DNA from: Chloroflexota bacterium
GTDB taxonomy: Bacteria > Chloroflexota > Dehalococcoidia > Lucifugimonadales > GCA-002723415
DNA: 64,000 bases
Direction: 5' to 3'
Assembly: GCA_002723415.1 (NCBI GenBank)
Contig: PBOA01000008.1
Location: forward strand, 5,607 to 69,606
The notes beneath the pieces were generated by a model, which worked only from the letters and a program-made list of their open reading frames with translations, ran no database searches and was not told the DNA's origin. This document shows, piece by piece, positions 11,994-38,005 of this stretch. Each line of letters begins with the position of its first letter. The first letter of the stretch is position 1. The position numbers and the translations under genes were made by a program.

Positions 11994-12114
11994 AATAATT
12001 TATAAAGTTTTTTTATAATTATAACTTTCTTTCTTTATATATGCATCTAGAGTTGTGGTAATATTATATGCTTGCTACAATTTACTTAAATTAGTTATTA
12101 TCTTTGGAGGTCTT

Positions 12115-12678
12115 ATGGTTCTTAGTGATAAAACAATTAAAGAGGAGCTTGCAAAAGGTAGAATTGTAATTGATCCTTTAGGAGAAGGGTGTATTCAGCC
12201 AGCAAGCGTTGATGTTCATTTAGGTTCAGAAGTATTAATTTTTAGAAATTCTAAAGCTGCGTATATTGATATTCGTCAAGACTTGAGTGATTTAACTGAA
12301 GTTGTTCGAATTGAGGAAGATAGTCCATTTATATTACATCCTGGGGAATTTGTTTTAGGTAGCACAGTCGAACACATTGAATTACCTGATGATTTAGTTG
12401 CTAGGTTAGAGGGTAAAAGTTCGCTAGGGAGAATAGGGCTATTAATTCATTCTACGGCAGGCTATGTTGATCCGGGATGGAAAGGTAGATTAACTTTAGA
12501 GCTTAGCAATGTTGCTAATTTGCCAGTAACTCTTTATAAAGATATGAAAATAGGACAATTATCTTATTTGAGGCTTACTAGCAAGGTTGATAACCCGTAT
12601 GGTTCCGAAAATTTGAATAGTAAATACCAAGGTCAAACAGGAGCTATGGGAAGCCAAATATTTAAAGATTTTGCATAA
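12115..12678 (+). CDS. dcd: dCTP deaminase
   Basis: IQPASVDVHLG, GKSSLGRIG and GWKGRLTLELSN motifs. Start set at ATG 12115, preceded by GGAGG (12106-12110); the track GTG start at 12055 adds a non-conserved hydrophobic extension. Confidence 0.9.
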   Translation: MVLSDKTIKEELAKGRIVIDPLGEGCIQPASVDVHLGSEVLIFRNSKAAYIDIRQDLSDLTEVVRIEEDSPFILHPGEFVLGSTVEHIELPDDLVARLEGKSSLGRIGLLIHSTAGYVDPGWKGRLTLELSNVANLPVTLYKDMKIGQLSYLRLTSKVDNPYGSENLNSKYQGQTGAMGSQIFKDFA

Positions 12679-12690
12679 TGAGGTTAGCAT

Positions 12691-13776
12691 ATGTCTTATA
12701 TGGATCTTGCTATCAAACTAGCTAAAGATAATGTAAATTGTGTTAGTCCTAATCCATCTGTAGGAGCAATTTTAGTTAAGAATGGAATTGTTGTAGGAGA
12801 AGGGCAGACTCAAGAGTTAGGTAAATCTCATGCAGAGATTATTGCTATTAATCAAGCTAGAGATAATGCTTTTGGTGCCACTTTATATACTACTTTAGAA
12901 CCATGTTCTCATTTTGGTAAAACTCCTCCATGTGTAGATGCAATAATTAAATCAGGCATTTCGAAAGTTAGTTATTCAATTTTGGATCCTAATCCAATAG
13001 TTAATGGGAAAGGAATATCAAAATTAAGAGATGCTGGTGTCATAATAGAATCTGGGGAAAGATCATCAGATGCTATTGAAATTATTGAAGCTTATTCAAA
13101 ATTCATTAATTATAAAATTCCTTTTTTAACTGCAAAGTTTGCTATGTCTTTGGATGGGAAAATAGCTACTGATACTGGGAAGTCTAAATGGATATCTAGT
13201 ATTGACTCTAGAAAGTTTGTTCATTCTATGAGAGGGAAATCAGATGCTTTAATGGTTGGTATAAACACTGTATTAAAAGATAATCCTCTTTTAACGAATC
13301 GGTATCAATTAGAGAATATTATTCAACAACCTTTGAGGATAATAATTGATTCTCACGCTAGAACTCCATTAAATTCTAAGCTTTTAAATCAACCTGGAGA
13401 AACATTAATTTTTGTTGCTAATCCTAAAGACAAAACTTGTAATGATCTTATAAAAAATGGAGCTAAAATTGTTAAAATACCCGGGGAAAATAATCAAGTT
13501 GATTTGGTTAATGTAATAAAATATCTGGGAAGTCAAAATATTACTTCTATATTAGTTGAAGGGGGAAGTATTTTGTTAGGAGCATTATTTGAAGAAGGGT
13601 TAATTGATAAGGTTGTTGCTTTTGTTTCCCCCATAATAATTGGAGGAATGAAATCTAAATCTCCAATTCAAAATAATGGTATTGATTTCATAAAAGATGC
13701 TTATCTTTTGAAAAATATTAAAATTAATAAAATTAGAGATGATGTTGTAATATCTGGGTATATTAAAGGAAGTTAG
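12691..13776 (+). CDS. ribD: Bifunctional diaminohydroxyphosphoribosylaminopyrimidine deaminase / 5-amino-6-(5-phosphoribosylamino)uracil reductase
   Basis: Deaminase zinc motifs HAEIIAI and TLEPCSHFGKTPPC, followed by a C-terminal reductase domain (KFAMSLDGKIA). Confidence 0.92.
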   Translation: MSYMDLAIKLAKDNVNCVSPNPSVGAILVKNGIVVGEGQTQELGKSHAEIIAINQARDNAFGATLYTTLEPCSHFGKTPPCVDAIIKSGISKVSYSILDPNPIVNGKGISKLRDAGVIIESGERSSDAIEIIEAYSKFINYKIPFLTAKFAMSLDGKIATDTGKSKWISSIDSRKFVHSMRGKSDALMVGINTVLKDNPLLTNRYQLENIIQQPLRIIIDSHARTPLNSKLLNQPGETLIFVANPKDKTCNDLIKNGAKIVKIPGENNQVDLVNVIKYLGSQNITSILVEGGSILLGALFEEGLIDKVVAFVSPIIIGGMKSKSPIQNNGIDFIKDAYLLKNIKINKIRDDVVISGYIKGS

Positions 13777-14352
13777 ATGTTTACTGGAATAATAGAAGAA
13801 ATTGGTATAGTTAAGCATTTTAGTGATGGGGTTTTAGAAATAAATGCATCAATTGTAATAGAATCATTAATGATTAGTGAAAGTATATCAGTTAATGGTG
13901 TTTGTTTAACTGTAACGAATTTAAATCATAAAAGTTTTGTAGTAGATGTGGTGCCTGAAACATTAAGAAAAAGCAATTTATCTAAGTTAACTAAAGGTTC
14001 ATTTGTTAATTTAGAAAGATCTTTACCTTTAAATAGCAGGCTTGGAGGACATTTTGTGCAAGGACACGTAGAGAATATTGGCTCAATTGAATATATGGAA
14101 AAAGATGATAAAGCATTTATGGTAGGAATTAAAGCTTCGGAGACAATTATGAAATATGTTGTTGAAAAAGGTTTTATTGCTATAGATGGTATTAGCTTGA
14201 CTGTAGTGGAGTGTAAAAATTCATATTTTAATGTTACTATTGTACCTTATACTTGGGAAAATACTGTAATGAAGTATCGAAATGTTGGAGATTTAGTTAA
14301 TCTTGAAACTGATATCTTAGCTAAATATGTGGAAAAAATTAGTTTAAAATAG
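13777..14352 (+). CDS. ribE: Riboflavin synthase (alpha chain)
   Basis: MFTGIIEEIG start and duplicated lumazine-binding repeats (NGVCLTV / DGISLTV). Start abuts the ribD stop. Confidence 0.9.
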   Translation: MFTGIIEEIGIVKHFSDGVLEINASIVIESLMISESISVNGVCLTVTNLNHKSFVVDVVPETLRKSNLSKLTKGSFVNLERSLPLNSRLGGHFVQGHVENIGSIEYMEKDDKAFMVGIKASETIMKYVVEKGFIAIDGISLTVVECKNSYFNVTIVPYTWENTVMKYRNVGDLVNLETDILAKYVEKISLK

Positions 14353-14396
14353 AAGATGATTTTATTCGATTAATATATTTATAGGAAGGTATTTAA

Positions 14397-15608
14397 TTGC
14401 TTACAAATGTTCATAAAGCTATTGAAGAGCTTAGAGAAGGCAAGATGGTTATCATAGTTGATGATCAGGGTAGAGAAAATGAAGGGGACCTTGCTATTGC
14501 TGCAGAAAAGGTTACTCCTGAAGTGATAAATTTTATGGCAACTCACGCTAGAGGTTTAGTTTGTATGCCTATGTTAAGTGAAAGACTAGATGAGTTAAAC
14601 ATTCCTCCAATGGTAAATGATAATACATCTCAATTGAGAACAGCTTTTACAGTGTCGGTAGATTCGATGAAGAGAGGTGTAACGACAGGTATTTCAGCTT
14701 TCGATAGATCATCTACAGTTAAACATTTGATTGATCAAAACTCAAAACCTTCTGATTTTGGGCGTCCAGGTCATATTTTTCCGCTTCGATATGAACCTGG
14801 AGGGGTATTAGTTAGGGCGGGACATACTGAAGCAATTGTTGATTTAGTAAATGCAGCTGGGATGTACCCTGCTGGAGTTATATGTGAAATCATGGCAGAT
14901 TCCGGGGCAATGGCTAGGACTAAAGATTTAGAAAAATTAGCAAAAAAATATGATTTAAGTATAGTAAGTGTAGCAGATATAATTTCATATAGAAGAAATA
15001 ATGAAATCGTTATTGAAAGACTTGGAGAGGCAAGAATACCTACTCAATATGGAGAATTTAAAGCTTTATCTTATAAGAGTTTAGTTGACAGTGGAGAACA
15101 TGTTGCATTTGTTAAAGGAAAAATTACGCCAGACAAACCTACTCTAGTTAGAGTTCATAGTGAATGCGTAACTGGAGATGTGTTTGGAAGCATTAGGTGT
15201 GACTGTGGAGATCAAATGAAATTAGCTTTACAGAAGATAGCAGATGCTGATTCAGGTGTTTTAGTTTATATGAGGCAAGAAGGTAGAGGTATAGGTCTCC
15301 ATAATAAACTTAAAGCATATGCTCTTCAAGATGAAGAATTATTAGATACAGTTGATGCTAATGTTGAATTAGGGTTTAAGGAAGATCTTAGACATTTTGG
15401 AACTGGGGCTCAAATTTTAGCTGATTTAGGAGTTGTTAAGTTCAATTTATTAACTAATAACCCTAAAAAAGTTGTTGGTTTAGAAAGTTTTGGTTTAAAA
15501 ATAGAAAAAGTAGTCCCAATAGTTGTAGATGTAAATAAAGAAAATAAAAAATATTTAACTGCTAAATCTGATAGATTGGGCCATAACTTAGATACTTTGT
15601 TTAAATAA
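14397..15608 (+). CDS. ribBA: Bifunctional 3,4-dihydroxy-2-butanone-4-phosphate synthase / GTP cyclohydrolase II
   Basis: DHBP synthase motif GRENEGDL and the GCH II zinc motif ECVTGDVFGSIRCDCG. TTG start. Confidence 0.93.
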   Translation: MLTNVHKAIEELREGKMVIIVDDQGRENEGDLAIAAEKVTPEVINFMATHARGLVCMPMLSERLDELNIPPMVNDNTSQLRTAFTVSVDSMKRGVTTGISAFDRSSTVKHLIDQNSKPSDFGRPGHIFPLRYEPGGVLVRAGHTEAIVDLVNAAGMYPAGVICEIMADSGAMARTKDLEKLAKKYDLSIVSVADIISYRRNNEIVIERLGEARIPTQYGEFKALSYKSLVDSGEHVAFVKGKITPDKPTLVRVHSECVTGDVFGSIRCDCGDQMKLALQKIADADSGVLVYMRQEGRGIGLHNKLKAYALQDEELLDTVDANVELGFKEDLRHFGTGAQILADLGVVKFNLLTNNPKKVVGLESFGLKIEKVVPIVVDVNKENKKYLTAKSDRLGHNLDTLFK

Positions 15609-15627
15609 TATTTAAGGATTTTATTCT

Positions 15628-16098
15628 ATGAGCAATATTTTGCAAGGCGATATTGACGGATCAGATAGGAAAGTTGGAATAATTGTTTCAGAATTTAACG
15701 AAGCAATAAGTACAAATTTACTTAGTGGCACTTTAAATGCTTTGAATGATTGTAATGTAAATGAAAAAAATATTTTTATTGTAAAAGTGCCTGGAGCTTT
15801 TGAAATTCCTTTAATTGCATTACAATTAGCTAAAAAAAAGGAATATGATGTTTTAATTTGTCTTGGAGCTGTAATTAGAGGCGAGACCGGACATTATGAT
15901 TTTGTAGCTTCAGGTTCTGCACTTGGTATATCTAAAGTATCATTAGACACAGGAATTCCTGTGATTTTCGGTATTTTGACTACAGATAATCTTCAGCAAG
16001 CTATTGATAGATCTGGTGGGAAATATGGTAATAAAGGGTATGATTGTGGAATTACTGCAATAAAAATGTCTTCTATTAATAGTAAATTCTTAAAATGA
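15628..16098 (+). CDS. ribH: 6,7-dimethyl-8-ribityllumazine synthase
   Basis: VPGAFEIP and GAVIRGETGHYDFV signatures; 156 aa. Confidence 0.92.
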   Translation: MSNILQGDIDGSDRKVGIIVSEFNEAISTNLLSGTLNALNDCNVNEKNIFIVKVPGAFEIPLIALQLAKKKEYDVLICLGAVIRGETGHYDFVASGSALGISKVSLDTGIPVIFGILTTDNLQQAIDRSGGKYGNKGYDCGITAIKMSSINSKFLK

Positions 16099-16168: not shown

Positions 16169-16239
16169 TGGGGATTGGTCTAGTGGTAGGACAACAGACT
16201 CTGGATCTGTAAGCCGAGGTTCGAATCCTCGATCCCCAG
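16169..16239 (+). tRNA. tRNA-Gln (anticodon CUG)
   Basis: TGGGGAT acceptor pairs with ATCCCCA. Anticodon stem-loop is ACAGA-CTCTGGA-TCTGT and T arm is CGAGG-TTCGAAT-CCTCG. It has the U1-A72 pair typical of bacterial tRNA-Gln, and CCA is not encoded. Confidence 0.9.
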
Positions 16240-16247
16240 TTTTGTTT

Positions 16248-16324
16248 GGCGCGTTCGTCTAGTGGCCTAGGACACCGCTCTCTCAAGGCGGAGATCACGG
16301 GTTCGAATCCCGTACGCGCTACCA
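16248..16324 (+). tRNA. tRNA-Glu (anticodon CUC), CCA encoded
   Basis: GGCGCGT acceptor pairs with ACGCGCT. Anticodon stem-loop is CCGCT-CTCTCAA-GGCGG, T arm is ACGGG-TTCGAAT-CCCGT, and the 3' end is ACCA. Confidence 0.88.
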
Positions 16325-16334
16325 GACTAAATAG

Positions 16335-17702
16335 CTAGTATTTACCAATATATTTTGACCTATAATCAGGAGCTTCAATTCTCAAGCAAGATCCTACCCA
16401 TGGATCTCTAACTCTAGACCTTATATGTTGTAAAGGACCATCTTCGGTAAAATCTATCATAGTAGTAATTACAGTTGGCATTCTGCCATTATGTCTGTGA
16501 GCAATTATCTGGAATAGTTTTTCTTCTGCCCAGGGACTACTACGTTCTCTTCCTAAATCATCTAATATCAAAAGTTTTGCGTTTTTAACTGAATCAAAAA
16601 CAGTATCATATGCTAATTTACTATCTGGAGCAAAAGTATTTCTTAAATGGTCAAGTAAATCAGGAACAAAAGCAAAATAAGTAAATTGATCTTTTTGTTT
16701 TCTAAATTCTGCAATTGCTATAGCCAAATGAGTTTTTCCTACACCAGTGTTGCCAAACAAAGTTAACCAACCATGAGGGTCATTAGCAAATTCTTTTGCT
16801 GCTTTGAAAGCCATCTCTAAGCTTAGTGCTTCATGAGCTCTAGGGTTATTTCCTCTGAAGTTAAAAGTTTTAAAATTCATTCTTTTAAATAATTCAGGAT
16901 TGATGTTGCCTTGACTTAAATTTTTGGAAAGATCCCAGGGTTTTAATATCACAGTTTTGCATAATTCTAAGTTGTTTATTTTACTACTTATTTGCGAGCT
17001 TAATTCTGATATAGGTCTCGATGTAGTAATAATAGTGGAAAGTTGATTGTTATACCGATGATTTAAAATCTGTTCTAGTTTTTCCTGGGCCCAAGGACTA
17101 GAGTTTTCTATTCCTAATCCATCTAATACAAGTATTGGTGTTTCTAAAACCAACTCAAATATATCGCTAAATTTAATTTCACTTGAAGGAGAAAATGTCG
17201 ATCGTAAATGGTCTAATAAATCAGGTACATAAATGAAAAATGCGGGGATGTTATTCTTTATATATTCTGAAGTCAAAGCAGCAGCTATATGTGTTTTCCC
17301 AGATCCATGTTCCCCAGATATAATTAGCCAGCCTTCGGGTTTAAGTGAGTAATCTTTTATAACTTGTAATGCTTTGTGATAGTTTTTTTGTTCATCTACG
17401 TTACTACTTAATCCATCATCATTTAGATTTGCGAAAGTAAATCGCGATAAATGTCCTAAGTTACTATACCTTAATAATTGAGATTGTTTTTCTAAATTTA
17501 AATTTTCTGTACGACATGTGCATGGGTTGATTTGGCCAAAACTTGGGTCACTAATTGGTTTGTCTTGAGATATCCATCCTCGTCCTTCACATATACTACA
17601 TTCATTATAAATTTCATTTGGAGCTTTAATTGATTTAGATTTTTTATTTTTCAAGTTGTGATCTATAGGCATACTTGAAAGTATTTCTCCAAATTTGTCC
17701 AT
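16335..17702 (-). CDS. Tandem-duplicated DnaC/DnaI/IstB-like AAA+ protein with N-terminal zinc ribbon (putative helicase loader)
   Basis: N-terminal CSICEGRGW...NPCTC. Two homologous AAA+ modules: GEHGSGKTH...VPDLLDHLRSTF...ILVLDGLG...SSPWAQEKL...IITTS and GNTGVGKTH...VPDLLDHLRNTF...LLILDDLG...SSPWAEEKL...VITT. It sits 45 nt downstream of dnaB. Confidence 0.75.
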   Translation of the reverse strand: MDKFGEILSSMPIDHNLKNKKSKSIKAPNEIYNECSICEGRGWISQDKPISDPSFGQINPCTCRTENLNLEKQSQLLRYSNLGHLSRFTFANLNDDGLSSNVDEQKNYHKALQVIKDYSLKPEGWLIISGEHGSGKTHIAAALTSEYIKNNIPAFFIYVPDLLDHLRSTFSPSSEIKFSDIFELVLETPILVLDGLGIENSSPWAQEKLEQILNHRYNNQLSTIITTSRPISELSSQISSKINNLELCKTVILKPWDLSKNLSQGNINPELFKRMNFKTFNFRGNNPRAHEALSLEMAFKAAKEFANDPHGWLTLFGNTGVGKTHLAIAIAEFRKQKDQFTYFAFVPDLLDHLRNTFAPDSKLAYDTVFDSVKNAKLLILDDLGRERSSPWAEEKLFQIIAHRHNGRMPTVITTMIDFTEDGPLQHIRSRVRDPWVGSCLRIEAPDYRSKYIGKY

Positions 17703-17747
17703 TTTGTCTCCTCAAGAATTTATTTTATATATTAAATTTCTTACGAA

Positions 17748-19118
17748 TTATTTTGATTTTTCGGTTAAGTTTTCGAATCTTACCATTGATCCTCTAAAAT
17801 ATAGAGGTATAGTTGCAAGAGGTCCGTTACGGTGTTTAGCTACAATTATTTCAGCTATATTTTCAGGATAGGGTTTAGTAGGGTTTTTGCTTTCCCATTC
17901 TTCTCGAGTAGTATAATGATCTTCTCTATATATAAATGCAACAATGTCCGCATCTTGTTCAATGCTTCCACTTTCTCTTAAATCAGATAAAATGGGCCTG
18001 TGGTTTGGGCGTTGCTCTACTGCCCTACTTAACTGAGAACAGGCTAATACTGGTACATCTAAATCCCTAGCAATTCCTTTTAAAGATCTAGATATTTCAC
18101 CCATTTCTTGAACTCTGTTTTCAGACCTCCATCCATTTGAAGTCCCACTTAGTAATTGCAAATAGTCTACAATTATAAGGTCAAGACCTTGCTCAGCTTG
18201 TAATCTTTTTGCTTTACTACGTATCTCCATTATATTTTGAATAGGTGTGTCATCGATGTATATAGGAAGGTCTGAAAGTTCTCCTATAGCGTCAAGTATT
18301 CGGCGTTCTTCAGTTTCATTAATTAATCCAACTCTTAATCTATGAGTATCTACATTTGATTCACTAGAGAGTAGCCTTAAAACGATTTGTTCATTACTCA
18401 TTTCTAAGCTAAAAATTCCAACAGAAGAACCATTTATTGCAGCATGTTTAGCAATGTTAAATACAAGGCTACTTTTACCTAAACTTGGTCTTGCTGCTAA
18501 TACAACCATATCAGAACGTTGTAATCCGCCTCCTATTAATTTATCAATATCTATGAATCCAGTCGATATTGGTGCAAGACGGTCTGAAGTACTATCTTGC
18601 ATAGCGGAACTTTCTTGCAGATATGCATCTAATACTTCTCGAATATGTTCAAAATCTCTTGATGCTCGGTCTGTTCTTATTTTGTAAATAGATTCTTCAG
18701 CTTCACTTAATGCTTGGTTTGTATCTGGCAAATTACTAAACCCAATATTTGTAATTTGACTTCCTGCTTGCACAATACGTCGCATTATTGAAGTTCTATG
18801 TATAATTCTTGCATATTCTTCAATATGTACTGAGGTTGGTACAATATTAACTAAATGATTTAAGTAGTCAATTCCTCCAATATTCTCTAATTTATCTTGA
18901 AGAGATAATTCATGAGCTAAGGATACTTGATTAATCCCTTCCATGCGTTCTAATAGTGATAAGCATGCTTGAAAACACCATTTTATTTTTTCACTATAAA
19001 TATCTTCAGATTTAAGAAAATGACTGATTTTAGTAATTGATTCAGAATCAATTAAAATAGAACCGATTAAAGATTCCTCTGCTTCTATATCGTGAGGTAA
19101 GAGCCTATCTGTATACAT
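17748..19118 (-). CDS. dnaB: Replicative DNA helicase
   Basis: N-terminal PHDIEAEESLIGSIL, Walker A ARPSLGKSS, Walker B IIVDYLQL and a C-terminal AKHRNGP motif. 456 aa with no intein. Confidence 0.95.
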   Translation of the reverse strand: MYTDRLLPHDIEAEESLIGSILIDSESITKISHFLKSEDIYSEKIKWCFQACLSLLERMEGINQVSLAHELSLQDKLENIGGIDYLNHLVNIVPTSVHIEEYARIIHRTSIMRRIVQAGSQITNIGFSNLPDTNQALSEAEESIYKIRTDRASRDFEHIREVLDAYLQESSAMQDSTSDRLAPISTGFIDIDKLIGGGLQRSDMVVLAARPSLGKSSLVFNIAKHAAINGSSVGIFSLEMSNEQIVLRLLSSESNVDTHRLRVGLINETEERRILDAIGELSDLPIYIDDTPIQNIMEIRSKAKRLQAEQGLDLIIVDYLQLLSGTSNGWRSENRVQEMGEISRSLKGIARDLDVPVLACSQLSRAVEQRPNHRPILSDLRESGSIEQDADIVAFIYREDHYTTREEWESKNPTKPYPENIAEIIVAKHRNGPLATIPLYFRGSMVRFENLTEKSK

Positions 19119-19270: not shown

Positions 19271-19813
19271 TTAAATAGATTGAGAGGATTCTTCTTTTGC
19301 AGATTTTGCTTCAGCTGCGTCTTCTTTTCCTTCGATTTCAGCTGCGTCTTCCCATATGGGTTCTGTGCCTGTAGCATGTACAAGAAGTTTTATTGTTGCA
19401 GTTAATTCAGGGTATAAATTAACAGGGATATTATATATTCCTGTTTCTCTAATTGTGTCTTTAGCTTGAATCATTCTTCTATGTATATCTTTTTCTGTTA
19501 ATTCAGATAATTTTTGAGCAATGATTGTGTCTGTTACTGAACCAAATAATTTACCGTTTGCACCAGCTCTACTTTCAATGGATATTTGCATTCCATCTAA
19601 TTCTTCAGTTAAAGCTTTGAAATTGGCAATTACTTTGATTCTTTTTTCTTCAGCTTGTTTTGTTAATTTTTGGACTCTTTGCATAGAATTTTGTGTCGCA
19701 GGTATTGCAAGTTTTTTAGGTATTAAATAATTTCTTGCAAAACCATTTTTCACCTCTTTGATTTCACCACCATTTGCTACGCCTTGAACGTCTTCTAAGA
19801 ATACAACTTTCAT
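19271..19813 (-). CDS. rplI: 50S ribosomal protein L9 with acidic C-terminal tail
   Basis: MKVVFLEDV...GEIKEVKNGFARNYLIPKKLA N-domain, upstream of dnaB as in many bacteria. The tail has a repeated EDAAE motif. Confidence 0.92.
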   Translation of the reverse strand: MKVVFLEDVQGVANGGEIKEVKNGFARNYLIPKKLAIPATQNSMQRVQKLTKQAEEKRIKVIANFKALTEELDGMQISIESRAGANGKLFGSVTDTIIAQKLSELTEKDIHRRMIQAKDTIRETGIYNIPVNLYPELTATIKLLVHATGTEPIWEDAAEIEGKEDAAEAKSAKEESSQSI

Positions 19814-21635: not shown

Positions 21636-22607
21636 ATGAAAAACTTATTTTATGGTGAAAATTATTTAGCTTTAAATCAAGCTGTAACTGATATTATAAA
21701 TAGTATAGAGCCTAATGAGCTTAAAGATGTTAATTTTACTAAATTAGATATTGTGAAGACGTCTTATGATGATTTTGTAATATCTACTTCAGCAATACCA
21801 TTTATGGTGAATAAAAGAATTATAATTGTTCAAAATTTGATTTCTAATATAGAAAAATTAAAGAACAATCATTCTAACAATAATCAAACGAACTCTTGGA
21901 ATAACTTACCTAAATATTTGAAAAATTTTCCTGCAACAACGCATTTAGTAGTAATAGAAGAAGCAATAAAAATTAAAAATAATAACTTCATTCAAAAAAT
22001 ATTAGATGAATTCCAAATAAAAAATTTTCGGGCCCCAAGTATACAGGAACTCCCTGAATGGATTATGAAGAGGGCTGAGGTTAAAAATATTAGTATAGAT
22101 TTTAAAATTGCAAAAGCTATATCAGATGCTGTAGGTGTGAATCTTAGAATTATTGATTCGGAATTAGAAAAACTTAGTTTGTATACCAATAATATTACTG
22201 AAAAAGATGTTGAAAAAGTAGTATCTCATGCAACGGATCCAAACATTTTTCACGCTGTTGATGCTTTATTAGATAATAATAAATCTATCGCATTAAAACA
22301 TATTAAAGAGCTCTTTATTGATGGTAAGAGAGCTTCATATATTATTAATATGATTACTAGGCAACTACGATTAATATTATTTGCAAAACATTATTATAAT
22401 ATTGGATATAATGAATCTAGAATCGGTTCTTTATTATCTTTAAGAGGGTACCCTTTAAGAAAAATTTTAGAACAAAATCTGAGGATTAATAGAGAAATAC
22501 TTGTTGAAATATATTCTCAGTTAATTAAACTTGATACTTCGCTAAAGACTAGTAATATTGATGAAGAATTTGCTTTAGAAATATTTATTTCTGGATTAAG
22601 AGTTTAA
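21636..22607 (+). CDS. holA: DNA polymerase III subunit delta
   Basis: 323 aa. The N-terminal pattern (LFYGENYLA...), a central AIxxAVGxNLxxIxxELEKL-like segment (AISDAVGVNLRIIDSELEKLSLY) and length fit HolA. Sequence is divergent. Confidence 0.75.
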   Translation: MKNLFYGENYLALNQAVTDIINSIEPNELKDVNFTKLDIVKTSYDDFVISTSAIPFMVNKRIIIVQNLISNIEKLKNNHSNNNQTNSWNNLPKYLKNFPATTHLVVIEEAIKIKNNNFIQKILDEFQIKNFRAPSIQELPEWIMKRAEVKNISIDFKIAKAISDAVGVNLRIIDSELEKLSLYTNNITEKDVEKVVSHATDPNIFHAVDALLDNNKSIALKHIKELFIDGKRASYIINMITRQLRLILFAKHYYNIGYNESRIGSLLSLRGYPLRKILEQNLRINREILVEIYSQLIKLDTSLKTSNIDEEFALEIFISGLRV

Positions 22608-22610
22608 TAT

Positions 22611-23249
22611 TTATTTAAATTTAACTGAGCGAAAATTACCTGACTTGATTTCTCGAATTAAATCTTTAATATCTTTTATTGGGTTAAAAAATTCTGTAGC
22701 AAATGTTCCAATGTGTTCAATCTGATGTGCATCACTTGCTCCAGTACCTTTCATTTTTAATTTTTTAGTTAGGTCTGATGAGAATTTATTTTCTTTTTTT
22801 GATCCTTTACCATTGAATTCTTCAATTGCATCGGATAATTGGAATACTGGATTTTCTGAAGCTTTATCAATCATTTTTTTATAATTCACCTCATCTATAT
22901 CTTTATATTCTGAATAATTTCTTCTATATGGATGGGCAACTATAATTGCGCCGTTTTCTTCGTCAATTAATTTTTTTACAAAGGATGCTCTATGCATACC
23001 AAATATATATTTTTTGAGTCCGTAAACTAATAAATGGCCTTCTTCTGTAGTTACTTCACAGCCAGGCAATATAGTAAAGTTATAGTTATCCGCTAGCTTT
23101 TCTATATCTTTTGGTTTCCAAAAGCCATCATGATCTGTGATACATATTCCATCGAGGCCAATTCGTTTTGCTTCAGAAATTAATTGGTCTGGAGTAAGCC
23201 TACTATCATCAGAAGTTGGGTAAGTGTGAGTATGAAGATCTATAATCAA
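22611..23249 (-). CDS. PHP-domain metal-dependent phosphoesterase
   Basis: IDLHTHTYPTSDDS, ICITDHD, AHPYR and GASDAHQ give the His/Asp ligand pattern of PHP domains. It is a paralogue of 39056-39697. Confidence 0.7.
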   Translation of the reverse strand: MIIDLHTHTYPTSDDSRLTPDQLISEAKRIGLDGICITDHDGFWKPKDIEKLADNYNFTILPGCEVTTEEGHLLVYGLKKYIFGMHRASFVKKLIDEENGAIIVAHPYRRNYSEYKDIDEVNYKKMIDKASENPVFQLSDAIEEFNGKGSKKENKFSSDLTKKLKMKGTGASDAHQIEHIGTFATEFFNPIKDIKDLIREIKSGNFRSVKFK

Positions 23250-29382: not shown

Positions 29383-31641
29383 TTAAGGTAAAATTTCTCC
29401 AGATGAAAATTTTCTTAAAACATTTTCTGTCATTATGGATATATCGTTATCATAATTATTATAAGATAAAGATCCACACCAACTTATTGAGCCTACAGAG
29501 AAAACAGCTCCTCCATTTAATTTTTTTAAATAAACAATATCAGATCTAACTAAATCGCTTTTTGTTCCTCCTTCATCGGGATTCATTGCTACAACTTCTT
29601 CAACAACATGTTGATATGCATCAGAGAAATCTTGAGCACTCGCAATTAATTTAGCATTTGCTGGAGTTCCTAGTTTTTTGTCAGCCCTATCAATTTCAAA
29701 GCCTGCTGCTCCATCCATAACTAGTCCGTGATTACCAAGTGGCTGGTTTGTATTGACACCTTCAAAAATAAACTTAGTTTCATTATTGATACTTTCTTTT
29801 GATATTTTATAAGGAATACTTACATCAAATCCTTGAGAAGTGAATCCAACGCCAACATTTTTCTGAGGAGGTAGTCCTCTGTGTTTCCATATCCCTCCTA
29901 ATTCTCCTGTTGTACTATGGTAATATTCTCCTGGATTTGCTTCATATGTTTCAGTTCCATGCCACCTTCGAACTTCTAAAATATGTGGATTTTCGGTGTC
30001 AAAAGACGTCACCCAATAGAAACCATTACCCCCTAAATACATTAATTTACCACTAGTAGAAGTATATTTATTTAGAGATTGCAGCATAGTATGTGTCCAA
30101 TATTCTGGATGAGCGCCTGTGATAACAACTTTATATGGTTCAATGAGTTTATGCCCTTCATTATTGAGGTCTTCATCTGTTATAACATCGTAATTGAATC
30201 CTTTTTGTTCTAGCCAATCAATTAAATGTAGATCTGCTGACAAGGATATTGGAGCTGACTCTCCTAGTCCTAATAGAGTTGCTCTTGTATGAGGTCTAAG
30301 GTTCATCATAGGTCGCATTCTGGAAGAGTAAAAAACTCCACTTCCATCAGAATGAAAATCATATAAACTTAATAGGTTATTATTAATAATATATTCATTT
30401 TCGTTGGGGGTATAAATATTGGATGCAGGAGGTTTATTTACTAAATCTCTATATCTTTTTATTCGAGATTCTGCAATTTTTTGATTCCAGTTAGCATAGG
30501 CTATGTATGTTGCAGTAGGAACCAAGAAGACTATTTTGGAGTTTTGAGTTCCTTTTTGAGGGCGAACAAAGAAGGGGATATAGTCAATATGATTTTTTGC
30601 GGTAATTTTGACAGCATATATTCCACTTTTCCATTTTTTAGAAATTTTTAAGGTAAAAGTTTTTTTCCAATTACAGTCTGCAAGATCATCATCATGAAAA
30701 TATATAGCCCCATATTGTTCCAATTTGTTGGTATAATTAATTTCAGTTCCATCCCAATTATGTCCTGTCATAGCTCTAGCAGGCTGATTGATACTAGTTC
30801 CGTCAATATTATTATTGGAAATATCCTTAATAATGTTTGATGAAATATTTTTGGAGAAATCCCAAAAGGCTATCAAAGATTTTTTAGAAAGCATGGAAAA
30901 TTCATCATTGTATAGAAGTGCTCTTTGTGTGCTATTTAGGGTTTTTCCAAATATTTTTGGAGACTCTATTTTTCCATTAAAATGTTTATACATAAATTTA
31001 TGGTTTTTTGATGCCCCAATGAATATATCTTCACTTATATTGGGAAAATTATATGTAGAGAGGGATGTTTCCTTAAAGGAGTAAGAATTGTCGTTGGGTA
31101 ATAAATTTAATGGTTTTTGTTCTAGGTATAGTTTATTAGATATATTGTCATACATTATTAATATAAAATACCATTCATGAGTTCGGATTGTTTTTTCAGA
31201 ATTCATGGACAACTTATTTCCATTATTATTTATGGATATATTTAATTCACCAGCATTGCTGATTTCTATTTCTATATAAGAATTTTCCCCTGATTGGGAT
31301 ATGATTACTTGATTATCTTCATAAGGTTTGGTTGGGTATATCCAAGTTTGAAAGGTGAAGCTTTTGTTGAAGTTAATCTGTTTTGGATTGTTAATTTTTA
31401 TATATGAGCCAGTGTGAATAGTTTGAATGCTTCCTTTATAAAAACCATCTATATTTGAGGGGACTTTATTTTCTTTGTGGCCTGGCCCACTAGGATTTGT
31501 ATCGCCGTGTATTAACCTGACAACTTCAGCTTTGAATTTAGGTTCAGTTGAGCTAATCATGAAGTCTAATTCTTCGCAAGGCTGAACACTTAATTTGTTA
31601 CTATAGCCTACTAGGTGATTATCTTTAGAAATTGATTGCAA
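29383..31641 (-). CDS. N,N-dimethylformamidase large (beta) subunit family protein with LamG/concanavalin-like N-terminal region
   Basis: 752 aa. N-terminus LVGYSNKLSVQPCEELDFMISS...VRLIHGDTNPSGPG and later HPEYWT, YLGGNGFYW and GGAVFSVGSISWCGSL match my memory of this family (large subunit about 760 aa). No small-subunit gene is adjacent. Confidence 0.5.
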   Translation of the reverse strand: MQSISKDNHLVGYSNKLSVQPCEELDFMISSTEPKFKAEVVRLIHGDTNPSGPGHKENKVPSNIDGFYKGSIQTIHTGSYIKINNPKQINFNKSFTFQTWIYPTKPYEDNQVIISQSGENSYIEIEISNAGELNISINNNGNKLSMNSEKTIRTHEWYFILIMYDNISNKLYLEQKPLNLLPNDNSYSFKETSLSTYNFPNISEDIFIGASKNHKFMYKHFNGKIESPKIFGKTLNSTQRALLYNDEFSMLSKKSLIAFWDFSKNISSNIIKDISNNNIDGTSINQPARAMTGHNWDGTEINYTNKLEQYGAIYFHDDDLADCNWKKTFTLKISKKWKSGIYAVKITAKNHIDYIPFFVRPQKGTQNSKIVFLVPTATYIAYANWNQKIAESRIKRYRDLVNKPPASNIYTPNENEYIINNNLLSLYDFHSDGSGVFYSSRMRPMMNLRPHTRATLLGLGESAPISLSADLHLIDWLEQKGFNYDVITDEDLNNEGHKLIEPYKVVITGAHPEYWTHTMLQSLNKYTSTSGKLMYLGGNGFYWVTSFDTENPHILEVRRWHGTETYEANPGEYYHSTTGELGGIWKHRGLPPQKNVGVGFTSQGFDVSIPYKISKESINNETKFIFEGVNTNQPLGNHGLVMDGAAGFEIDRADKKLGTPANAKLIASAQDFSDAYQHVVEEVVAMNPDEGGTKSDLVRSDIVYLKKLNGGAVFSVGSISWCGSLSYNNYDNDISIMTENVLRKFSSGEILP

Positions 31642-36529: not shown

Positions 36530-38005
36530 ATGAGTAAATCTAATTTAACAGAATTAACAATTTCCAAAGCAAGAAAATTACTGGATAAACGAGAAATCAG
36601 TTCTGTTGAATTGACTAAAGCATTTTTAGATAAGATTGCTGAAACTGACAATTTTGTGAAATCTTTTATTACTGTTACTCCGGAATTAGCCTTGAAGCAA
36701 GCTGAAAAGGCAGATCTACTTATTAAAGAAAATAATATTCATGATTTAACAGGAATCCCTTTACAAATAAAAGACAATATTTGTACATCTGGAGTTAATA
36801 CTACATGTTCGTCAAAAATGTTAGAAAACTTTGTACCTCCATATAATGCAACAATTGTAGATAAATTATATGATTCAGCTGCAATTTTACTTGGAAAAGG
36901 GAATTTAGATGAGTTTGCAATGGGTTCATCTACAGAAAATTCGTATTTTTATCCTACAAAAAACCCCTGGGATTTAGATAGAGTCCCTGGAGGGAGTAGC
37001 GGAGGGCCTGCAGCTTCTGTAAGTTCGGACCAAGTAATAAGTTCTATAGGGTCTGATACCGGGGGTAGCATAAGACAACCAGCATCTTTATGTGGTGTTG
37101 TAGGCCTTAAGCCAACATATGGTTTAGTTAGCAGGTATGGCTTGATAGCTTTTGCTAGTTCATTAGATCAAATTGGCCCAATTACTAAAGATGTTACTGA
37201 TTCAGCTTTGTTATTAAATGCTATATCTGGATATGATTCTAAAGATGCTACATCAATAAATTTTCAAACTCCAGATTATTGTAATTATTTAAAAGAAGAT
37301 TTATCTGGTATTAAAATTGCAATTCCTGAAGATTATTTTGGAGATGATATTGATAGTGGCGTTAAAAAAGTTGTTTATGAAGCAATTGAAGTTTTAAAAA
37401 AACTTGGTGCATCAATAGAAGAGATTTCTTTATCAGTAATGCAACAATTCGCTTTAGCAGTATATTATATTATTGCACCATCAGAGGCTTCAGCAAATTT
37501 ATCTAGATATGATGGAGTAAAGTATGGCTTTTCTGACAGGTTGAATTCTGGAGATTTGATGGAAACATTATATAAAACTCGTCAAAATGGATTTGGTCCT
37601 GAAGTAAAAAGAAGAATAATGTTAGGTACGTATGCACTTTCTTCCGGTTATTATGATGCATATTATTTAAAAGCACAGCAAGCAAAAAAAATGATTAAAT
37701 CTGAATATGAAGATACTTTTAAAAAATATGATGCCATAATAACTCCTACGTCCCCTACTGTGGCTTTCAAAATTGGTGAGAAATTTTCTAATCCGGTTCA
37801 GATGTATTTAAGTGATATATTAACAATTCCAGTTAATATAGCGGGTATTCCAGCTATATCTATTCCTTCGGGGTTTATAAATGGATTACCTGTAGGAATG
37901 CAAATTATTGCTCCAAGGTTGCGAGAAGATACTATTTTTCATATTGCTTATTCATATGAAAAAGCAACAAATTGGAGTAAATTCAAACCAAATTTTAATA
38001 CCTAA
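36530..38005 (+). CDS. gatA: Asp-tRNA(Asn)/Glu-tRNA(Gln) amidotransferase subunit A
   Basis: Amidase signature GGSSGGPAA...GSDTGGSIRQPA and KDNICT. 491 aa. Confidence 0.95.
   Translation: MSKSNLTELTISKARKLLDKREISSVELTKAFLDKIAETDNFVKSFITVTPELALKQAEKADLLIKENNIHDLTGIPLQIKDNICTSGVNTTCSSKMLENFVPPYNATIVDKLYDSAAILLGKGNLDEFAMGSSTENSYFYPTKNPWDLDRVPGGSSGGPAASVSSDQVISSIGSDTGGSIRQPASLCGVVGLKPTYGLVSRYGLIAFASSLDQIGPITKDVTDSALLLNAISGYDSKDATSINFQTPDYCNYLKEDLSGIKIAIPEDYFGDDIDSGVKKVVYEAIEVLKKLGASIEEISLSVMQQFALAVYYIIAPSEASANLSRYDGVKYGFSDRLNSGDLMETLYKTRQNGFGPEVKRRIMLGTYALSSGYYDAYYLKAQQAKKMIKSEYEDTFKKYDAIITPTSPTVAFKIGEKFSNPVQMYLSDILTIPVNIAGIPAISIPSGFINGLPVGMQIIAPRLREDTIFHIAYSYEKATNWSKFKPNFNT

Follow-up and report, generated by a model that had tools for sequence, protein, structure and literature searches.

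A helicase-loader candidate with two tandem AAA+ modules, encoded beside dnaB in a Chloroflexota genome

The DNA considered here is a stretch of 64,000 nucleotides from a Chloroflexota bacterium (GenBank assembly GCA_002723415.1, contig PBOA01000008.1), referred to in its full length as the window, and our subject is a gene on its minus strand that follows rplI and dnaB (Table 1). Its product is a single polypeptide in which a zinc ribbon is followed by two mutually homologous modules of the DnaC/DnaI type, an arrangement that an earlier reading of the bare sequence (hereafter the original prediction) had proposed and whose quoted motifs were all found as written. It is probable, in our judgement, that the gene encodes the resident loader for the replicative helicase as a covalent pseudo-dimer, of which three chains would serve one DnaB hexamer with alternating sites. 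The start of the protein, MDKFGEIL, lines up with the near-invariant family start MExLGxIL, and 45 nucleotides (17703–17747) separate the dnaB stop from the loader start.

The two parts of the protein, residues 1–259 and 260–455, align with 36% identity over 172 residues (BLASTP, E=8e-40), and two separate stretches of the chain are recognised both by PF01695 (IstB_IS21) and by each of several NCBIfam loader models. Motif counts were taken over 198 tandem proteins, in which the cysteines of the CxxC...CxC ribbon are invariant in 196–198 sequences. In an AlphaFold model of the protein (mean predicted local distance difference test score, pLDDT, 84.3; predicted template modelling score, pTM, 0.57) helices are predicted at the position of the initiator-specific motif (ISM), between strand 2 and Walker B, at residues 159–168 and 178–187 of module 1 and 346–355 and 365–373 of module 2, and those of both modules align to the equivalent segment of solved DnaC and DnaI structures (PDB IDs: 3ECC; 2W58). 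An ISM-like sequence, VPDLLDHLR, is near-invariant in both modules, with R167 and R354 present in all 198 proteins. The linker between the modules is 20 residues long in 178 of the 198 despite poor conservation of its sequence (mean identity 0.40 and 0.21; pLDDT 66–75), and this constant length points to a fixed inter-module geometry.

Table 1. Positions in the window of the loader candidate, its domains and motifs, and the two genes upstream; fractions refer to the 198 tandem proteins.
Feature	Position	Strand	Evidence
Tandem-module helicase-loader candidate, whole open reading frame (ORF), 455 aa, ATG start	16335..17702	-	Uninterrupted ORF
Ribosome-binding site GAGGAG, 5 nt before ATG	17708..17713	-	Read from sequence
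Zinc ribbon, aa 33-63 (C35-x2-C38 ... C61-x-C63, GxGW)	17514..17606	-	
AAA+ module 1, aa 84-253	16944..17453	-	PF01695 E=1e-13; PRK08116 105 bits; PHROG 50 E=2.5e-38
Module 1 Walker A, GEHGSGKT, aa 130-137	17292..17315	-	K136, T137 in 198/198
Module 1 Walker B, ILVLDGLG, aa 190-197, Gly195 replaces second acidic residue	17112..17135	-	
Module 1 Box VII position, Lys241, family Arg	16980..16982	-	R 175, K 20, H 3 of 198
Inter-module linker, aa 254-273	16884..16943	-	
AAA+ module 2, aa 274-448	16359..16883	-	PF01695 E=1.5e-14; PRK08116 108 bits; PHROG 50 E=1.9e-34
Module 2 Walker A, GNTGVGKT, aa 317-324	16731..16754	-	K323, T324 in 198/198
Module 2 Walker B, LLILDDLG, aa 377-384	16551..16574	-	D381 197/198, D382 196/198
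Module 2 Box VII arginine, R430	16413..16415	-	R in 197/198
Module 2 sensor II arginine, R448 (PDYR)	16359..16361	-	R in 184/198
dnaB replicative helicase, complete, 456 aa, presumed client	17748..19118	-	PF00772 + PF03796, E=7e-98
rplI (ribosomal protein L9), first in conserved rplI-dnaB-loader order	19271..19813	-	ORF call, synteny

When each half was classified by profile and by structure, a check suggested with the original prediction, both grouped with replicative helicase loaders and not with IstB helpers or DnaA. The whole protein scores 103 bits against PF01695 in two stretches (cutoff 24) and its halves alone score 52 and 55 bits. With the NCBIfam models, the first and second halves reach 105 and 108 bits for PRK08116, 70 and 71 for PRK06835, 69 and 63 for DnaI, 60 and 71 for IstB, 49 and 41 for DnaC, and 43 and 35 for DnaA; both halves also match PHROG 50, 'DnaC-like helicase loader' (Table 1). 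The cutoff of the IstB IS21 helper model (NF038214, IS21_help_AAA) was not reached (128 bits versus 200), and the DnaA models (74 and 57 bits versus 410 and 344) and Hda (48 versus 195) likewise remained below theirs. The best match in a sequence search of the PDB was Aquifex DnaC (3ECC, E=7e-17, to module 1), followed by Geobacillus DnaI, a Streptococcus primosome component, E. coli DnaC, the phage 77 loader and IstB, and no chain in that search had a tandem-loader architecture. Foldseek comparison of a single module gave 3ECC with a template modelling (TM) score of 0.76 and a root-mean-square deviation (rmsd) of 3.4 Å, DnaI (2W58) with 0.73, the phage 77 loader (5HE8) with 0.72–0.75 and IstB (5BQ5) with 0.71. 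Judged by the agreement of profile scores, PDB matches, Foldseek and PHROG 50, both modules are helicase-loader-type AAA+ domains of the initiator clade, and the protein is not DnaI or DnaC at the level of orthology. A p97-like double-ring fold was considered and rejected, as the Foldseek matches (TM 0.22–0.25; rmsd 17–22 Å) reflect only the presence of two AAA domains.

Fourteen contigs assembled independently from marine metagenomes, TARA samples among them, encode the identical 455-residue protein and share as neighbours holA, a DUF1232 gene, a HemN-like radical-SAM gene, rplI, dnaB, the loader and a convergent rib operon. A search of 5.8 billion proteins gave 5095 matches, the best 120 of which are nearly all 428–487 residues long, with 46–54% identity and 89–100% query coverage. 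An exhaustive search of 1.84 billion cluster representatives found 454 at E<=1e-30; of the 150 best that were listed, the majority align collinearly from end to end. In GTDB, taking one genome per species, 221 stretches encode a relative; the best 80 of these, which we call the related loci, are all from Chloroflexota, covering Dehalococcoidia (including SAR202) and Anaerolineae (including Pelolinea). All 80 encode both modules and none contains an internal stop. The two-module form is common in Chloroflexota, and the survey for the same fusion that had been called for turned up two-module homologues in the hundreds.

The loader has a GC content of about 0.32, matching its surroundings (about 30% for the window, uniformly 27–33%). 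No transposase was found among the called genes around the locus on four contigs, and no mobile-element genes lie nearby. With its composition, the lack of a transposase and the identical context on the 14 contigs, the gene is resident and not mobile. The low GC, the recurrence in TARA and other ocean metagenomes and the closest homologues, all from Chloroflexota (Dehalococcoidia, SAR202), suggest that the window, which contains no rRNA gene, comes from a streamlined marine genome resembling Dehalococcoidia.

The order of genes at the locus is widely conserved. Of the 80 related loci, 77 carry dnaB upstream of the loader and on its strand, usually preceded by rplI, and the order rplI-dnaB-(dnaD-like)-loader is kept across Dehalococcoidia and Anaerolineae. 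The bracketed gene, of 215–235 residues, stands between dnaB and the loader in 76 of the 80 loci and matches PF07261 (DnaB_2; E=5e-10 and 1e-8), which is the DnaD/DnaB co-loader domain. Two relatives with about 50% identity to the window protein (P0010 and P0007), which belong to the same clade as defined below by Walker B, also carry it, overlapping the loader start. Examples of the gene are L002 5376–6080 and 4376–5044 of both L166 and L168. Since the gene is present both in these relatives and in 76 of the 80 loci, the ancestral operon, as reconstructed from gene order, is rplI-dnaB-dnaD-like-loader, and it resembles the DnaD/DnaB–DnaI logic of Firmicutes. The operon of rplI, dnaB and loader in the original prediction therefore holds in its order, but that the loader follows dnaB without a gene in between is a condition derived within the window lineage.

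A DnaD-like gene between dnaB and the loader is absent from the window, from its 81%-identical relative (P0003; L085) and from L046, L052 and L057. Nor was such a gene found elsewhere in the window by tblastn or by a profile hidden Markov model (HMM) with 76 homologues against the six-frame translation; the best HMM match was an out-of-frame fragment with E=0.15, compared to 3.5e-83 for the positive control. A second marine lineage of 30% GC (L169 74–2218, also L170–L172) similarly has no DnaD-like gene, and two streamlined marine lineages may each have lost the gene on their own. Sequence change is much faster in the loader than in the helicase: relative to L085, DnaB is 96% identical and the loader 81%, and relative to P0007 the values are 70% and 52%.

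The two modules differ in their motifs. The original prediction held that module 1 has lost the second acidic residue of Walker B, which is true of the window, where Asp-Gly (D-G) stands for Asp-Asp (D-D), but the loss is specific to a clade and many tandem loaders keep D-D. Over the tandem proteins this position is G in 112 and D in 82; D-G is found in the window and 111 of its 117 nearest homologues and D-D in 79 of 80 more distant Chloroflexota genome loci, both samples being biased (the one made up of nearest hits, the other of loci picked up by peptide patterns), so that these counts are not frequencies. D-G goes together with loss of the polar residue at TT[N] (G with A in 91 cases, G with N in 0), and D-D forms of module 1 retain the Asn there in 32 cases. 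The window protein carries three motif changes in module 1, namely D-G, a Ser at TT[N] and Lys241. The asymmetry claimed between the modules is present, but its general form across the family is another one: the sensor II arginine, kept by module 2 in 184/198, has no conserved counterpart in module 1 of the 198 tandem proteins. Module 2 has the full catalytic set of Walker B D-D, Box VII Arg and sensor II Arg. Sequences of the D-G clade share a mean pairwise identity of 0.63 in module 1, of 0.72 in module 2 and of 0.63 in the zinc domain; by these sequences module 1 is not decaying, and both modules are under purifying selection.

The catalytic base of AAA+ proteins is the second acidic residue of Walker B, and replacing it leaves ATP binding without hydrolysis; an example is the E167Q trap mutant of IstB (PDB 8Q4D). 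For this reason it is reasonable to propose that module 1 binds ATP without hydrolysing it in the D-G clade, and since many tandem loaders keep D-D, such a module would not be a general property of the family. Two proteins of 458 and 456 residues (P0153 and P0154) show the reversed polarity, with D-D, TTN, SRL and APDYR in module 1 and no sensor II in module 2, and module 2 of the window protein finds its best match in their module 1.

Proteins with the common head MESLGDILKR...CxxCxGxGW...CxC occur with one, two, three or four modules. Single-module members include P0227 (281 residues, a cluster of 27 members with NCBI proteins from Dehalococcoidia metagenome-assembled genomes), P0267 (252 residues, 43 members from Tara samples), P0236, P0262, P0268 and P0257. 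The gene of P0267, from the second marine lineage of 30% GC named above, starts 3 nucleotides after a dnaB whose product is 54% identical to the window DnaB. Three modules are found in P0004 and P0005 (792 and 794 residues), both with a repeated C-terminal extension, and four in P0121 (827 residues).

In a neighbour-joining tree of the modules with 200 bootstrap replicates, the two N-terminal modules of P0004 are sisters at 100% bootstrap (83% identity), and by this grouping a duplication of module 1, recent in date, gave rise to the three-module form. Modules 1–3 of P0121 form a clade at 99%. The single module of P0227 is nested among module 2 sequences at 96.5%, which amounts to loss of module 1, and that of P0236 is placed likewise at 79%. 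Module 1 sequences of Dehalococcoidia form one clade free of any module 2 at 54.5%, and those of Anaerolineae join it at 3%, values that do not separate one duplication from several for the tandems of the two classes. From these groupings the history, as read from the tree, is one of at least one old duplication (old within Dehalococcoidia) and several later gains and losses.

Comparison with known systems places the protein near DnaI of Bacillus and Geobacillus (PDB IDs: 2W58; 4M4W), which has an AAA+ domain of the same clade (TM 0.73; sequence E=4e-12) and a zinc-binding head before the ATPase, and in most Chloroflexota the PF07261 neighbour is reminiscent of the Firmicute dnaB–dnaI pairing. 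Unlike in DnaI, the 'dimer' here is a covalent one in which two ATPase modules share a single head, the loader gene is linked to the helicase gene itself, the window lineage has no DnaD-like gene and the protein scores 129 with the DnaI equivalog model, short of the cutoff of 228. The best solved match of a single module in sequence and fold is DnaC of Aquifex aeolicus (3ECC/3EC2), and the Aquifex and E. coli proteins (the latter 6QEL/6QEM) share the Walker B D-D, the ISM helices and the Box VII arginine; however, DnaC has one module per chain, no zinc ribbon, and six chains with six N-terminal helices per DnaB hexamer. The closest curated models, PRK08116, PRK06835 and PRK06921, the last two with alignments that cover the zinc-ribbon region, are single-module 'ATP-binding protein' models of 266–330 positions. 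IstB of IS21/IS5376 (5BQ5; 8Q3W) shares PF01695 and the fold (TM 0.71), but it has a single module, and the loader here has no IstA partner or mobile-element context. Phage DnaC-like loaders (PHROG 50; Bacillus phage IEBH and Staphylococcus phage 77, 5HE8) match both halves strongly; they are single-module only, and a search of 562 records from phages, of the best 80 loci in IMG/VR and of BFVD structures found no viral tandem, all being single modules of at most about 36% identity. Type II AAA+ proteins (p97/Cdc48 and NSF) also have two modules per chain, often one degenerate and one active, which is an analogy only, as they belong to another AAA+ clade and have stacked-ring geometry.

Characterised bacterial loaders (DnaC, DnaI, DciA, lambda P and the phage loaders) are, to our knowledge, either single-module or not ATPases. 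That no tandem-module loader had been described, as the original prediction supposed, agrees with our searches of the full-text literature, which found none, but the gene itself is not new: Brezellec et al. (2016) catalogued a resident, 'domesticated' dna[CI] gene of Chloroflexi without mention of the tandem architecture (PMC5109545). Their table gives, for the cultured Chloroflexi Anaerolinea, Chloroflexus, Roseiflexus and Dehalococcoides, one PF01695 protein each, its last column, as we read it, gives no DciA for them, and phage genes that became domesticated are the presumed source of dna[CI] genes (PMC5109545). The homologues go under generic names in the databases ('ATP-binding protein'; 'DNA replication protein DnaC'), with the architecture unnoted.

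A role in replication is presumed from the linkage to rplI and dnaB, the PF07261 neighbour in relatives and the holA and holB-like genes nearby. Two loader assemblies provide the geometry: in the Geobacillus/Bacillus complex 4M4W one helicase hexamer takes three DnaI dimers (PMC9912922), and according to the literature E. coli DnaB has six DnaC bound as a spiral through the LH-DH module. In the mechanism that we propose, the zinc-ribbon head would dock on DnaB, and three tandem chains would place six AAA+ modules and three zinc-ribbon heads behind the DnaB hexamer, the covalent equivalent of the three DnaI dimers. Both modules would bind ATP and oligomerise on single-stranded DNA through the ISM-like VPDLLDHLR. 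Module 2 alone would have a complete hydrolytic site, and module 1 would hydrolyse poorly or not at all in the D-G clade (D-G, no sensor II and, in the window lineage, Lys241), so that hydrolysis-competent and degenerate ATP sites would alternate in the assembled loader. The binding to DnaB, the 3:6 stoichiometry, the assignment of arginines to sites and the loss of hydrolysis in module 1 are what we infer. The identity of the protein as a helicase loader is the part that we regard as very likely, and for the specific model of stoichiometry and asymmetry we see about even chances.

Several observations weigh against the proposed loader or its geometry. The equivalog cutoffs of DnaI (PRK08939; 128.6 bits for the whole protein versus 228) and DnaC (PRK07952; 87 versus 357) are not reached, that of PRK08116 is passed only by the sum of the two modules, and no relation of the zinc ribbon to the N-domain of DnaI was detectable. 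The domains of the AlphaFold model are confident, yet with the low pTM the interface of module 1 with module 2 is not readable from it. The window lineage is without the DnaD-like partner, so that either the pathway differs or the gene lies outside the window; many tandem loaders keep D-D in module 1; and the four-module variant does not divide evenly into six. A more general version of the proposal would take the number of AAA+ modules per chain as an evolvable parameter, with the two-module form assembling as three chains into a six-module spiral of strictly alternating hydrolysing (module 2) and binding-only (module 1) sites, with no DnaD-like co-loader in the window lineage; we hold this version to be possible and on the whole doubtful.

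A simpler account is that the protein is a plain fused dimer without functional asymmetry, in which D-G, Lys241 and the sensor II differences are tolerated drift and the fusion merely fixes local concentration or stoichiometry. The retention of D-D in 79 of 80 genome loci would fit this well, as would the single-module members in the same operon slot, the range of one to four modules, and the place of P0227 among module 2 sequences, by which the loss of a module need not mean the loss of the gene. However, the sensor II arginine is missing from module 1 throughout the family and kept in module 2, module 1 evolves somewhat faster (0.63 vs 0.72 identity), and the Walker B change is fixed in the window clade (111/117) and co-varies with the loss at TT[N], a pattern that looks like a stable division of labour and not like noise; we consider drift rather unlikely. 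Alternatively, module 1 might now serve as an integral adaptor or co-loader in place of the absent DnaD-like partner and no longer act as a nucleotide-dependent loader subunit. The window lineage does combine the absence of a DnaD-like gene, both between dnaB and loader and in the rest of the 64 kb, with the three changes in module 1. But P0007 and P0010 have a degenerate module 1 of the D-G type and still keep their DnaD-like gene, the other AT-rich lineage without that gene has a single module, and the invariant Lys and Thr of the module 1 P-loop argue that nucleotide binding is retained, which together make an adaptor very unlikely.

The remaining accounts deny either the function or the gene. 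The gene might lie beside dnaB by chance and encode a helper of transposition like IstB, or another P-loop system such as a STAND or defence NTPase, and the best Pfam family is indeed named IstB_IS21, with weak additional matches to nSTAND3, Avs2 and a defence model. Those last matches cover only the P-loop region and are far below cutoffs, the IS21 helper model falls short of its own cutoff, no IstA transposase or other mobile-element gene is nearby, the composition is that of the host and the order of rplI, dnaB, dnaD-like gene and loader is conserved in both classes, so that we regard a non-replicative role as highly improbable. A fusion of two adjacent loader genes by assembly or annotation is contradicted by the identical protein on independent contigs from different samples, by the intact frame in every related locus and by the mostly collinear cluster representatives, and its likelihood is practically negligible.

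How many of the six loader ATP sites need to bind or hydrolyse ATP, and in which order, continues to be debated on the basis of point mutants. A covalent dimer that occurs in nature and pairs an intact site with a degenerate one would have its subunit order and stoichiometry fixed, and the roles of its sites could be tested module by module, with the natural one-, three- and four-module relatives as controls. The tandem form accords both with a hexamer that takes three DnaI dimers and with a DnaB N-terminal collar of three-fold symmetry, and it is conserved across the phylum, including abundant ocean lineages of Dehalococcoidia and SAR202 type. If the proposal is true, the alternating-site loader would be a bacterial, single-gene counterpart of the hetero-oligomeric and partly degenerate eukaryotic loaders (ORC-Cdc6 and RFC), and the streamlined marine lineage of the window would load its helicase without the DnaD-like co-loader that its relatives require. 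Replication specialists may find such a natural system for site-specific use of ATP in helicase loading moderately to highly surprising.

Other features of the locus complete the picture. An internal start at the near-invariant Met275, which would give a product of module 2 only, was considered and rejected as no Shine-Dalgarno sequence lies upstream; the Met of the RMTF motif is also found in mid-chain in single-module relatives, which marks it as a structural residue. A scan of the operon for promoters and terminators gave counts equal to those in shuffled sequence of this 30% GC DNA and is thus uninformative. Convergent with the 3′ end of the loader are dcd, ribD, ribE, ribBA and ribH (12055–16098, plus strand) and, just downstream of the loader, tRNA-Gln(CTG) and tRNA-Glu(CTC) (16169–16324, plus strand), with 10 nucleotides from the end of tRNA-Glu, as called by ARAGORN, to the loader stop codon. 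Other replication genes near the locus are holA, for the delta subunit of DNA polymerase III (21636–22607, plus strand), and a holB-like delta-prime gene (PF13177; 25715–26731, plus strand), with a gene for a small PHP-domain protein among them (22611–23249, minus strand). Further away, a 752-residue protein (29383–31641, minus strand) combines a concanavalin-like domain (Laminin_G_3) with a C-terminal domain like the beta subunit of N,N-dimethylformamidase (PF20254, E=4e-91), and the window also holds an amidase gene (36530–38005); the two may be relevant to how this marine lineage metabolises organic nitrogen.

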